Below are positions 1,619-3,286 of a DNA stretch of 31,908 nt, in pieces (position 1 is the first letter of the stretch; each line of letters starts with the position of its first letter). Made by a program: the position numbers and the translations under genes. The notes under the pieces were generated by a model. That model was not told the origin of the DNA and did not search any database. It worked only from the letters and a program-made list of their open reading frames with translations. The DNA lies in NCBI GenBank assembly GCA_017613475.1, contig JAGADT010000157.1, positions 1 to 31,908 of the forward strand, read 5' to 3'. The DNA comes from Desulfovibrionaceae bacterium (GTDB lineage Bacteria > Desulfobacterota > Desulfovibrionia > Desulfovibrionales > Desulfovibrionaceae).

Positions 1619-1657
1619 AAAAAGCAAAACGGGAACCGAAACACATCGGCTCCCGTT
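1619..1657 (-). terminator. Minus-strand intrinsic terminator (candidate end of antisense RNA 1)
   Basis: Minus strand reads AACGGGAGCCGA-TGTGTT-TCGGTTCCCGTT then TTGCTTTTT. The single mismatch is a G-U wobble only on the minus strand. Confidence 0.65.
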
Positions 1658-1696
1658 CTTTGCCATTGCCATTTCCCTGCGAGGCTTTGGACAAAC

Positions 1697-1733
1697 CCTC
1701 AATTGCCTTCCGCAGGGAATATGCGTATGGTCC
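1697..1733 (+). promoter_or_regulatory. Sigma70-type promoter, copy 1 of a 37-bp direct repeat
   Basis: TTGCCT(1703-1708)-17 bp-TATGGT(1726-1731); 35/37 identical to 2970-3006. Confidence 0.7.
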
Positions 1734-1803
1734 CCACCTGTACGGCTGCCCTCTTTGTCTCTTCACGCCGGCACGGCGCAAACAGTAACGGGAGGGCTCA
1801 GCC

Positions 1804-1875
1804 ATGCGGAGATGTATTTTCACTCTGCTGATCGCAGCGGTCCTGGTTCTGTTGTTCGCCATTAAGGCTAACTAA
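1804..1875 (+). CDS. 23-aa hydrophobic peptide MRRCIFTLLIAAVLVLLFAIKAN, putative type I toxin
   Basis: GGAGGG SD at 1791-1796; one uninterrupted hydrophobic segment flanked by basic residues; promoter upstream, hairpins downstream. Below the ORF-track size cutoff. Confidence 0.75.
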   Translation: MRRCIFTLLIAAVLVLLFAIKAN

Positions 1876-1878
1876 CAG

Positions 1879-1913
1879 TTGACCCCGGCCCACTCGCGAT
1901 GGGTCGGGGTCGA
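1879..1913 (+). other. 14-bp stem-loop immediately after the small-ORF stop codon
   Basis: TTGACCCCGGCCCA-CTCGCGA-TGGGTCGGGGTCGA; the two mismatches are G-U pairs on the plus strand. Confidence 0.7.
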
Positions 1914-1968
1914 TAAATAATTACCCGTTGGCAGCCGTGCACGGGGGCGTTTAACCGCGCCGTGCCAG

Positions 1969-2009
1969 CCCAGGTGCCTGTAAACGGCAGGTGCCTGGGT
2001 TCCCTTTTT
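1969..2009 (+). terminator. Probable terminator of small-peptide mRNA 1
   Basis: CCCAGGTGCCTG(1969-1980) pairs with CAGGTGCCTGGG(1988-1999) via tandem G-U pairs (plus strand only). The tail TTCCCTTTTT is interrupted. Confidence 0.6.
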
Positions 2010-2037
2010 ATATAAGCCCTTCCGCCGGGCTTGGCAA
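2009..2037 (-). promoter_or_regulatory. Candidate antisense promoter for module 1
   Basis: Minus strand TTGCCA(2037-2032)-17 bp-TATATA(2014-2009). Confidence 0.45.
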
Positions 2038-2062
2038 GCGCTGTCCCAAGGAGGTTACGCTC

Positions 2063-2101
2063 ATGGGCCACATTGCGGCTTTTAGCATTTTAGCGAAGTA
2101 A
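2063..2101 (+). CDS. 12-aa micro-ORF MGHIAAFSILAK with a consensus SD
   Basis: AAGGAGGT at 2048-2055, 7 nt before ATG; a hairpin plus T-run follows at 2131-2157. Translation is unproven. Confidence 0.3.
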   Translation: MGHIAAFSILAK

Positions 2102-2130
2102 CCCCACCCCTCATTCCCGCCGCCATAAAT

Positions 2131-2157
2131 AAGCCCTGCTTTTGCGCAGGGCTTTTT
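2131..2157. terminator. Bidirectional terminator-like hairpin downstream of hicB; copy 1 of a 27-bp direct repeat
   Basis: AAGCCCTGC-TTTTGC-GCAGGGCTT-TTT; 25/27 identical to 2863-2889. Confidence 0.75.
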
Positions 2158-2215
2158 ACTGGAGGCAAAAACCTTCGCAGGCTTTCAGAAACCGAAAGCG
2201 AATCGGTGGGAAGGG

Positions 2216-2560
2216 CTACGCATTGATAGCCTCAAGATGCTCTTTCAGCGCTTCGGTGATGAATGAATTGAGGGAAACGCCGGAAGCAACAGCAGCCAGG
2301 CTGCTGCGCCTGTATAATTCAGGGTCAAGACGCAGGGCGAACTTTCCGGCTTTCTTATAGGGCTCGATCCCCCTTGCCTGGCACTCCTCCAAAAAAACCT
2401 TCAGGGAAATCTCCCCTTCACGCTCCAGGCCGTTCAGGTCTTCGGCATAGAAATCGGCTCCGCCATTCAGTCCGACGAACTCGCCCCTGAACATGCGTAT
2501 GTCAGGGTCATAGGAAATGACGGCCTGATAGCCGCCGTCAAATTTCATGACATTTTTCAT
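2216..2560 (-). CDS. hicB: HicB-family antitoxin (partial RNase H-like fold plus C-terminal RHH-like DNA-binding region)
   Basis: MKNVMKFDGGYQAVISYDPDIRMFRGEFVGLNGGADFYA...GKFALRLDPELYRR. The start at 2560 overlaps the hicA stop (ATGA). Confidence 0.9.
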   Translation of the reverse strand: MKNVMKFDGGYQAVISYDPDIRMFRGEFVGLNGGADFYAEDLNGLEREGEISLKVFLEECQARGIEPYKKAGKFALRLDPELYRRSSLAAVASGVSLNSFITEALKEHLEAINA

Positions 2561-2811
2561 GGCTTCACCCCATGTTCCAGCAGCCACTTGCGAATGCTCG
2601 CAACGGCACCTTTATCAGTATCAGGAGAAGGATGCGGCCTGTGGAAAACCTTTACTTCGCCAAAAAGAAAGACGCAAATCCGCGAACCTTCCCTCTCCGT
2701 TATCTCCGCACCCAAATCAAGAAACAGGGCTTCCACGTCAGCCCAGCGAATGCTGCCCGAAACAGGGCGCTGGAAAATTTTGGCCAGCGTTGCCTGGCAT
2801 TTCTTTTTCAT
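2557..2811 (-). CDS. hicA: HicA-family mRNA interferase toxin
   Basis: 84 aa, IFQRPVSGSIRWADVEALF...EREGSR...FHRPHPSPDTDKGAV with the conserved His; directly upstream of hicB. Confidence 0.9.
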   Translation of the reverse strand: MKKKCQATLAKIFQRPVSGSIRWADVEALFLDLGAEITEREGSRICVFLFGEVKVFHRPHPSPDTDKGAVASIRKWLLEHGVKP

Positions 2812-2817
2812 GCAAAT

Positions 2818-2846
2818 ATAATATTAAAAAATAATATCAATATCAA
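2818..2846 (-). promoter_or_regulatory. hicAB promoter
   Basis: Minus strand TTGATA(2846-2841)-17 bp-TATTAT(2823-2818) in an AT-rich patch; overlaps the palindrome TAATATTA(2819-2826) and tandem AATATC repeats. Confidence 0.7.
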
Positions 2847-2857
2847 GCAATCCACCA

Positions 2858-2890
2858 CAAAAAAGCCCTGCTGTTACGCAGGGCTTTTTG
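2858..2890. terminator. Bidirectional terminator-like hairpin upstream of hicA; copy 2 of the 27-bp repeat
   Basis: AAAAAAGCCCTGC-TGTTAC-GCAGGGCTTTTT. Confidence 0.75.
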
Positions 2891-2969
2891 CTTGCAGGAA
2901 CCATGCCGGAGAATCATGCCGCCGAAGCGCTGCTGCCTTCCGCACTTCCCAATCAATGAGCCGGGCAAG

Positions 2970-3006
2970 CCTCAATTGTCTTCCGCAGGGAATATGTGTA
3001 TGGTCC
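2970..3006 (+). promoter_or_regulatory. Sigma70-type promoter, copy 2 of the 37-bp direct repeat
   Basis: TTGTCT(2976-2981)-17 bp-TATGGT(2999-3004). Confidence 0.7.
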
Positions 3007-3043
3007 GCTCCGTGGGCACATTCTCCGAAAGGAGGGTAAGCCC

Positions 3044-3142
3044 ATGCTGCACTTTCGTGAGGTAATGCCTCCCGGGCAGTGCTGGCCTCTTTTTTGGGCC
3101 GACTGCTGGCTGATTTGGTTAAGCGTCTGTTTGACTAAATAA
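3044..3142 (+). CDS. Small ORF of module 2, putative type I toxin, probably frameshifted
   Basis: AAAGGAGGG SD at 3028-3036 inside a GAAA-capped hairpin. In frame it gives 32 aa (MLHFREVMPPGQCWPLFWADCWLIWLSVCLTK). The alternative frame 3079-3138 gives VLASFLGRLLADLVKRLFD*, which looks more like a toxin helix. Confidence 0.5.
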   Translation: MLHFREVMPPGQCWPLFWADCWLIWLSVCLTK

Positions 3143-3146
3143 GTTC

Positions 3147-3180
3147 GCCCCGGTGAGAGGTTAGCAGCTCTCATCGGGGC
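3147..3180 (+). other. 13-bp stem-loop immediately after the module 2 stop codon
   Basis: GCCCCGGTGAGAG-GTTAGCAG-CTCTCATCGGGGC; same position and CCCCGG/CGGGG core as 1879-1913. Confidence 0.7.
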
Positions 3181-3223
3181 ATAAAGCTTTGCGAGACATT
3201 TAATCGCGGAGAACGTGCCCCAC

Positions 3224-3262
3224 GGGGCAGGGGTGTTGACGCACTCCCTGCCCCTCTTTTAT
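3224..3262 (+). terminator. Terminator of small-peptide mRNA 2
   Basis: GGGGCAGGGGTG(3224-3235) pairs with CACTCCCTGCCCC(3242-3254), followed by TCTTTTAT. Confidence 0.7.
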
Positions 3263-3286
3263 GCGCATTATTTTGCATTTCGTCAA
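3258..3286 (-). promoter_or_regulatory. Candidate antisense promoter for module 2
   Basis: Minus strand TTGACG(3286-3281)-17 bp-CATAAA(3263-3258); same position relative to the terminator as in module 1. Confidence 0.4.

Follow-up and report, generated by a model that had tools for sequence, protein, structure and literature searches.

Type I toxin-antitoxin-like module families flanking a hicAB operon in a Desulfovibrionaceae genome

Two blocks of DNA (1619-2037 and 2858-3286) lie on either side of a hicAB operon in contig JAGADT010000157.1 of a Desulfovibrionaceae bacterium (assembly GCA_017613475.1; the stretch of 31,908 nt that was analysed is referred to below as the window), and the question they raise is whether they might be toxin-antitoxin (TA) loci in their own right. 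A previous examination of the letters alone, called here the sequence-only reading, had noticed the same order of parts in both blocks, and we found these parts where they had been described: promoter, leader, Shine-Dalgarno sequence (SD), small open reading frame (ORF), post-stop hairpin, a segment complementary to the leader, terminator and an opposing promoter. Our analysis points, with a probability of roughly 0.65 for this reading as a whole, to two families of type I TA-like modules, in which both the toxicity of the peptide and the transcription of an antisense RNA are predicted from sequence. The island in the window would then consist of the type II hicAB operon with an intact member inserted on one side of it and a frameshifted member on the other.

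The promoters of the two modules are contained in a direct repeat of 45 nt (1694-1738 and 2967-3011; 89% identical), which reads TTGCCT in block 1 or TTGTCT in block 2, followed by N17 and TATGGT. That the promoter is shared had been recognized before, the repeat being given as 37 bp. The 3' segments complementary to the leaders pair 1733-1750 with 1930-1947 in block 1 and 3014-3027 with 3207-3220 in block 2; upon folding of the predicted mRNAs, the 5' end was paired with the segment preceding the terminator in both of them, with z = -5.1 and -6.9 relative to shuffled sequences. Because of these values, and because every part recurs in homologues elsewhere, the arrangement is more than a product of chance. 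The common features end with the promoter and the blueprint: the blocks are members of two different families (type A for block 1, type B for block 2). The sequence-only reading had proposed a single type I TA family, with peptides and untranslated regions (UTRs) unrelated in sequence.

Transcription of module 1 is predicted to start at about 1738-1741 from the plus-strand promoter at 1703-1731 (TTGCCT at 1703-1708, N17, TATGGT at 1726-1731) and to produce a toxin-like mRNA of about 270 nt (1739-2009, plus strand), whose closing helix is formed by 1740-1750 and 1930-1941. The SD, GGGAGGG (1790-1796), serves an ORF for a hydrophobic peptide of 23 residues, MRRCIFTLLIAAVLVLLFAIKAN (1804-1875, plus strand). 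Behind it stand a stable, GC-rich post-stop hairpin (1881-1911), a possible minus-strand terminator of the antisense RNA, the intrinsic terminator of the mRNA (1967-2009, plus strand) and the convergent promoter on the minus strand (2009-2037; TTGCCA at 2037-2032, N17, TATATA at 2014-2009), with a predicted antisense start at about 2002. One clear homologue of type A was detected, in another genus (locus L051). Its 23-residue peptide, MRRRIFVLLVAVALVLLLASDAR, is embedded in an identical layout with the convergent promoter equivalently placed, and the two sequences differ by compensatory changes in the closing helix (one pair), the post-stop hairpin and the terminator. Among the variants of block 1 listed from sequencing runs, the 11 substitutions within the ORF comprise, by our own reading of the table, 5 synonymous and 6 conservative ones, and all listed insertions and deletions fall outside the ORF. 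A second long complementarity within module 1 (1767-1779 with 1957-1969) was considered and dropped, as a local hairpin in the two-sequence consensus explains it better.

Module 2 repeats this plan with different letters. Its promoter (2976-3004, plus strand; TTGTCT, N17, TATGGT) has a predicted start at about 3012, and the resulting mRNA of about 250 nt (3012-3260, plus strand) would be closed by pairing of its 5' arm (3012-3027) with the 3' arm at 3206-3222. Next to the SD, GGAGGG (3031-3036), lies the anti-SD of the leader, UCUCC. The post-stop hairpin (3147-3180) has a 13-bp stem that co-varies across the family, the terminator (3223-3260, plus strand) carries the apical motif GUGUUGACGCAC, and the convergent promoter occupies 3257-3285 on the minus strand (TTGACG at 3285-3280, N17, CATAAA at 3262-3257), with a predicted antisense start at about 3250. 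The block on the 3' side of the terminator, which includes this promoter, is nearly invariant among the paralogues of the same genome. All the 3' parts listed by the sequence-only reading, from the post-stop hairpin to the opposing promoter, could be assigned coordinates in both blocks. The apex of the terminator (3233-3244 in the window; also loci L033-L047 and L065) reads GUGUU(A/G)(G/A)CGCAC in 11 of 29 members from several genera, with co-variation in the lower stem; containing a YUNR-like UUAG or UUGA, it could make a kissing-loop contact with the 5' hairpin of the antisense RNA.

The reading frame of module 2 is where the earlier description had to be amended. A small hydrophobic ORF had been assigned to each block; in block 2 the hydrophobic ORF that runs from the ATG (3044-3142) specifies a Trp/Cys-rich 32-mer. 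Since an insertion of 14 nt lies at about 3057-3070, and since the frame conserved in the family is the one at 3061-3138 (..AVLASFLGRLLADLVKRLFD), the ATG frame is a frameshift product, and the feature at 3044-3138 (plus strand) is a broken type B peptide gene. The insertion is missing from all six paralogues in the end-to-end alignment, none of four sequencing runs compared covers it, and in relatives represented in public sequencing runs ATG CTG CAC TTC CT joins directly to 3072. The inserted letters resemble the spacer between SD and start codon in contigs of relatives (GAGGTAATGCCT as compared to GAGGTGAGATGCCT), and for this reason the insertion may have arisen as a scar of recombination or, in the assembly, as a chimera of paralogues.

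How widely such modules occur could be followed for type B. The genome from which the window comes (an assembly of 1.3 Mb, 74% complete) contains a third copy of the promoter pattern, on contig C89, in front of a hydrophobic ORF of 27 codons. Its upstream hairpin is that of block 1 and its leader that of block 2, which shows that the copies have a mosaic structure. A BLAST search with block 2 yielded 12 matches in this genome, partial copies at contig ends included; seven full type B modules align end to end, and a 27-position peptide profile finds 8 places with 35-60 bits. The family numbers at least 8 copies in this partial genome. One of the copies (C191a) is a pseudogene in which ATG has become ATA and the SD is lost. 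Such decay, like the 14-nt frameshift in the window, is typical of toxin genes.

Outside this genome, the peptide profile matched in 15 of 120 other Desulfovibrionaceae genomes, which represent 13 further genera, many of them with multiple or tandem copies and with up to 9 per genome. The earlier proposal to look for homologues in this family was borne out as far as the peptide is concerned; the promoter pattern had no match beyond the genome of the window among 200 genomes of the family, a contig set of 185,579 species and the JGI metagenomes, so that the 45-nt promoter must be regarded as specific to the copies of this genome, and it was only the BLAST search with module 2 and the peptide profile that revealed the homologues. 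In each of the 18 loci that were cut out, all parts that the locus could show were found in the same order. Promoter, anti-SD leader, SD and an ORF of 23-27 codons are present in 17 of them, the exception (L047) being situated at a contig end, and in those whose sequence extends sufficiently, they are followed by the post-stop hairpin, the leader-complementary segment, the terminator and the opposing promoter. Five more loci come from assemblies named uncultured Desulfovibrio, Desulfovibrionaceae and 'Lawsonia'. Among 292 genomes sampled from the phylum outside Desulfovibrionaceae, one has the type B family, in two copies, and in the phage collection no copy was detected. Two small circular plasmids from uncultured bacteria also have complete, unannotated type B modules in their intergenic DNA: pRGI00185 (6,084 bp), which carries a resolvase, and pRGI00732 (3,013 bp), whose only annotated genes encode a Rep3 initiator and an HU protein (modules at HG796274.1, 345-573, and HG796361.1, 486-663). 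On the 3,013-bp plasmid, the module is the only candidate for a stability function. Head-to-tail tandem arrays with a spacing of 337-470 nt are frequent in other genomes, as at L035/L049 (G041:C9), L041 (G096:C39) and L042 (G099:C191).

The reading frame of 23-27 codons is under purifying selection, judging from the pattern of substitutions. Among 19 members of 27 codons, the entropy at the three codon positions was 1.02, 0.61 and 1.43, the third position being the most variable and the second the least. The median ratio of non-synonymous to synonymous substitution rates (dN/dS) was 0.34; one shifted frame gave 1.8, and the other was closed by stop codons. An open frame of 23-29 codons is maintained by 28 aligned members, which belong to more than 14 genera, and all members except one clear pseudogene have both SD and start codon. 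The peptides have 23-29 residues, and the mean hydropathy of the 24 intact ones of type B is 0.6-2.2.

The RNA structure is strongly conserved as well. RNAalifold applied to the seven paralogues returned a helix of 14 bp by which the very beginning of the mRNA is joined to the segment in front of the terminator; 6 of the 14 pairs show changes on both sides. In this helix 89.8% of the alignment cells are paired, as compared to 37-62% when the partner columns are slid, and its co-variation score exceeded all 500 shuffles. Both arms have changed together in members of the family, for example in GGGCAC/GUGCCC, GGGAUAC/GUAUCCC and GGGCCAG/CUGGCCC. An alignment of 25 divergent mRNAs made with MAFFT misaligned the leaders, and the long-range helix was lost in RNAalifold; duplexes between each leader and its cognate 3' segment were folded instead. 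Of the 25 members, which represent more than 14 genera, 17 gave z < -3 (median -3.95). Both the ORF and the structure are conserved in homologous loci, two of the features on which the sequence-only reading had suggested that its proposal be checked. Its claim of a leader occluding the SD is matched by prediction: in 25 members, the SD is expected to be paired to about 80%, with the UCUCC of the leader as one partner and another anti-SD, within codons 5-7, as the alternative, and when the 3' UTR is blocked in the folding, the partner of the SD moves to the leader. A scheme in which the closing helix frees the SD and the antisense RNA is a pure translational switch, was rejected, as the folding leaves the SD paired in both states.

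A promoter directed against the mRNA is the remaining part of the arrangement. On the minus strand, TTGAC[AG]-N17-TAnnnn within 150 nt past the terminator reached a score of at least 9.5 in 23 of 29 members, as compared to 1.4% of random windows of the same genome and to 1 of 29 for the plus strand of the same windows. The hexamers and their spacing are kept and the sequence of the spacer is not, which fits a promoter. RNA initiated there would have its first nucleotide within the 3' half of the terminator stem and would extend back across the 3' UTR. The post-stop hairpin, located 0-9 nt after the stop codon and reaching -24 to -36 kcal/mol in most members, has a tail richer in T on the minus strand (4.65 T of 12) than on the plus strand (2.65). 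An antisense RNA of an estimated 110-135 nt covering the 3' UTR is predicted, and appears more likely than one of about 385 nt.

Traces of expression were sought in three runs of one bovine-gut metatranscriptome study, and in all three, short contigs map to the positions of the modules, with 85-99% identity. The longer contigs cover 1746-1802, 1769-1892, 1888-1958, 1896-1950, 1930-2038, 3072-3185 and 3072-3153 in run X21, 1790-1945 and 3072-3185 in run X14, and 1866-1917, 3072-3185 and 3233-3273 in run X20; no contig of the three runs lies over 1500-1745 or 2908-3035. Contigs begin at 1746, near the predicted start of module 1, and all remain within the predicted bounds of the mRNAs except one of low depth, which extends 29 nt past the terminator. 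In X21, word depth was 128-217 over block 1 and zero over hicAB. In one contig of this run 2038 is connected back to 1740, a junction that points to a relative with type A modules in tandem.

Which known systems do these modules resemble? No Rfam family was matched by the window from 1 to 6000 at E up to 1, apart from two sub-threshold noise matches (isrJ and RAGATH-36), no Pfam or NCBIfam model reached its cut-off with the small peptides, and none of 10 peptides was present in an exact look-up among about 15 billion proteins, a procedure used because the peptides are too short for large protein similarity searches. In the papers searched, no type I loci are described for Desulfovibrio or its relatives. 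It follows from these searches that the type I TA-like family is unannotated. Sub-threshold matches of the peptides are almost all to type I toxins, with a few weak others (PAP2, Syndecan and one ArfB), and at E <=0.01 the profile and its members match only models or chains of type I toxins, apart from the ArfB match by a single member.

The closest peptide is LdrD of the Ldr/Rdl system of Escherichia coli: among all Protein Data Bank chains, only LdrD (5lbj, E 3.2e-4) passes E 0.01 with the profile. The family consensus FLrDVLAaVVAGVLVALIvrlln aligns with FWHDLAAPVIAGILASMIVNWLN, the common pattern being D..A.V.AG.L...IV..LN, and small single-helix peptides, multi-copy chromosomal loci and a highly structured mRNA are further points of likeness. 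On the other hand, the peptides found here have 26-27 residues as compared to 35 and are devoid of the conserved Pro of Ldr, their PF13940 scores of 14.1-14.7 bits (E 0.03-0.05) stay under the gathering cut-off of 27, and whereas Rdl lies opposite the 5' leader (T1TAdb paper), the conserved antisense promoter described here is at the 3' end.

This layout has its counterpart in Clostridioides difficile (CD2517.1/RCd8 and CD2907.1/RCd9), where the transcripts are also convergent and overlapping. The toxin mRNA there is about 300 nt long with a sequestered ribosome-binding site, the antitoxin of 134-140 nt overlaps its 3' end, and the loci adjoin CRISPR arrays (PMC5961336); one type B copy likewise abuts such an array. 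The corresponding model, NF047374, was matched by 7 of 28 members over positions 1-21 or 1-24 of its 51 (best E 2e-5), the listed score being 22.2 bits (E 1.4e-4) as compared to a cut-off of 60. The C. difficile toxins differ in their 50-53 residues with a Lys-rich tail, which is absent here, and in the host phylum, the host of our modules being Gram-negative; a helix closing 5' and 3' ends is not described in PMC5961336. The convergent antisense RNA at the 3' side of the toxin mRNA and the sequestered SD are also reminiscent of Fst/RNAII (par of pAD1) and of TxpA/RatA and BsrG/SR4 of B. subtilis. When SR4 binds at the 3' end, the ribosome-binding region is altered at a distance as well. The Fst model NF033608 was matched by 2 of 28 members (best E 4.4e-4; 11.3 bits for one member, as compared to a cut-off of 26), and the 5' direct repeats used in Fst pairing are absent here. 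Full-length mRNAs of the Gram-negative Hok/Sok and AapA/IsoA systems are closed by a long-distance 5'-3' interaction and are translationally inert; their antisense RNAs target the 5' part of the mRNA, and activation takes place by 3' trimming. The closing helix of our modules recalls hok and aapA, but the peptides are unrelated to Hok, with no Pfam Hok match. Of the 24 families in T1TAdb, all those with 3'-overlapping antisense RNAs, Fst, TxpA and BsrG among them, are from Gram-positive bacteria.

In the mechanism we envisage, a sigma-70 promoter would give rise to an mRNA of 250-270 nt whose extreme 5' end would pair with the segment just before the terminator, the anti-SD that holds the SD being located in the leader or within codons 5-7. 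This mRNA would encode a membrane peptide of 23-27 residues resembling Ldr/Fst-type toxins. From the promoter past the terminator, an antisense RNA of about 110-135 nt would be made, with full complementarity to the 3' UTR, so that both the terminator hairpin and the closing helix's 3' arm would be covered. It would act as the antitoxin: its duplex with the 3' UTR would mark the mRNA for RNase III-type decay, and it would also free the 5' leader to lock both SD and start codon. Should the short-lived antisense RNA be lost, for instance upon plasmid loss, the peptide would be made and could damage the membrane.

We favour a type I TA-like interpretation because the loci are multi-copy, tandem and pseudogenised, because some are plasmid-borne, and because contigs from RNA libraries coincide with the modules. 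The main rival would regard the peptides as ordinary small membrane proteins, non-toxic at native levels and tuned by cis-antisense RNA and mRNA structure, with no addiction module involved. Coding constraint and regulatory anatomy fit any tightly regulated small-protein gene, and some copies stand beside housekeeping genes (plsY and an RNB-domain exoribonuclease gene on contig C191). Nevertheless, we hold this to be unlikely, as it does not account for the multiplicity, tandem arrangement and decay of the loci, for a copy on a 3-kb plasmid otherwise equipped only with replication and HU genes, for neighbours such as hicAB, a Phd/YefM gene and a CRISPR array, or for profile matches that, the ArfB case apart, are confined to type I toxins at E <=0.01. 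Even less can be said for a repeat without coding function, be it a structured RNA or a terminator/insulator element, in which the ORF would be incidental. RNA structure is indeed strongly conserved, and a separate terminator repeat does occur in the window; yet an element of this kind would hardly keep a frame open in 28 members of more than 14 genera, with a dN/dS of 0.34, the greatest variability at third positions, an alternative frame closed by stops, and SD and start codon in all members but one pseudogene, and we consider it very improbable.

A different alternative concerns the antitoxin only. The sequence-only reading had the antisense RNA extend over about 385 nt to the upstream minus-strand terminator; an RNA of about 385-390 nt would pass from the convergent promoter across the toxin gene and its promoter to that terminator (1626 or 2860). 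Both modules of the window do possess such hairpins (1659-1626 and 2889-2860), so that in this respect the description of the blocks was accurate, in many members the post-stop hairpin makes a weak terminator, and for the C. difficile antitoxins both short and long forms are described (PMC5961336). But most paralogues and homologues lack the upstream terminator, which thus is not a regular part of the family, the RNA-library contigs leave 1500-1745 and 2908-3035 uncovered, and in tandem arrays the upstream space is taken by the previous module. A long antitoxin RNA is in our opinion quite unlikely.

Several results speak against the type I TA-like interpretation or limit its reach. The type B family was not found in the four genomes of the same genus. 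All matches of the peptides to known toxins are below curated cut-offs (14-25 bits as compared to 26-60). The SD is predicted to be sequestered with and without a free 3' UTR, which leaves the switching-on of translation unexplained. The post-stop hairpin is a convincing antisense terminator, with a good U-tail, in some members only, and for this reason the 3' end of the antisense RNA is uncertain. The RNA-library contigs are unstranded, come from a single study and from relatives that are 85-99% alike, could include DNA carry-over and cannot show antisense RNA. The claim of an unannotated type I TA family in a lineage of sulfate reducers nonetheless gains support from the coding frame, the co-varying helix, the conserved convergent promoter and the weak similarity to toxins. 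More tentatively, and with considerable doubt, the modules could represent the first type I TA superfamily of Desulfobacterota, abundant in gut Desulfovibrionaceae and on their small plasmids, which would combine Ldr/Fst-like toxins with a 'Gram-positive-style' 3'-convergent antitoxin RNA; by a kissing start at the terminator loop, this RNA would capture the 3' arm of the closing helix and so change, over a distance of about 200 nt, the anti-SD by which the ribosome-binding site is held.

If the type I TA-like interpretation is true, a multi-copy family in gut sulfate reducers would add a phylum to the map of type I TA systems and link Ldr/Fst-like peptides to a different regulatory layout. 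The family would also account for intergenic regions, highly structured and without annotation, at which assemblies of these genomes break up. Small Desulfovibrionaceae plasmids would gain a candidate for a stability element, and a counter-selection tool of the kind already made from C. difficile systems might be derived from it.

The operon between the blocks had been identified as hicAB before, and the domains of both products exceed their Pfam cut-offs. On the minus strand (2811-2216), hicA, the toxin gene, comes first (2557-2811; 84 residues; PF07927, E 2.9e-9, 37.3 bits with a cut-off of 27) and overlaps by 4 nt (2557-2560) with hicB, the antitoxin gene (2216-2560; 114 residues; PF05534, E 2.1e-13, 50.4 bits with a cut-off of 21). 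The operon has a promoter of its own, TTGATA-N17-TATTAT at 2846-2818, ends at a bidirectional terminator hairpin (2128-2160) and is a regular member of the HicAB type II systems, in which nothing unusual was seen. This hairpin is one copy of a recurrent terminator element (CCCTCATTCCCGCC flank and AAGCCCTGC...GCAGGGCTTTTT hairpin) that brackets hicAB as a direct repeat (2104-2160 and 2852-2892); the second copy includes the hairpin upstream of module 2 (2860-2889), a perfect stem of 12 bp with T-runs on both sides. A further copy (C73:2974-3030 of the same genome) ends a thioesterase-like gene. The element may belong to a REP-like (repetitive extragenic palindromic) terminator family or mark the ends of a hicAB cassette. 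The hairpin upstream of module 1 (1626-1659), with its T-tail on the minus strand and a near-exact copy on contig C89, is probably an insulator or a catch-all terminator and not a family-wide part. Between module 1 and the operon, a plus-strand fragment (2048-2101) with the SD AAGGAGG, an ATG at 2063 and a 12-codon ORF resembles modules 2 and C89 in their SD-start region, at 74-78%; devoid of leader and 3' parts, it is a possible vestige of type B and perhaps the remnant of a third module in the island.

The closest genome of the same genus matches the window only from 4405 on (Nudix, carB), and the region up to 4404 is non-syntenic, which means that the stretch with Sel1 genes, modules, hicAB and SBF transporter is variable and fits the accessory hotspot proposed earlier. 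The SBF transporter gene adjoining module 2 was not found in four genomes of the genus, so synteny is anchored only at carB. The island is preceded (1-1429) by two paralogous genes for Sel1-repeat proteins, one with a signal-like N-terminus, each followed by a similar short terminator region. Other copies in the same genome have neighbours of various kinds. At locus L023 (C137:25-245), a CRISPR array with 36-nt repeats, a spacing of 67 nt and a degenerate last repeat ends exactly at the -35 element of a type B module, with umuD/umuC on the other side; such adjacency concerns 1 of about 8 copies in this genome. The exoribonuclease gene that, together with plsY, adjoins the C191 copy is of RNase II/R type. 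On contig C54, a Phd/YefM-type antitoxin gene (4468-4713, minus strand) begins 25 nt from the promoter of the type B module at 4738-5039; a partner ORF without a Pfam match lies downstream of this gene, and a gene for an MrfA-type Zn-binding helicase is located on the other side.

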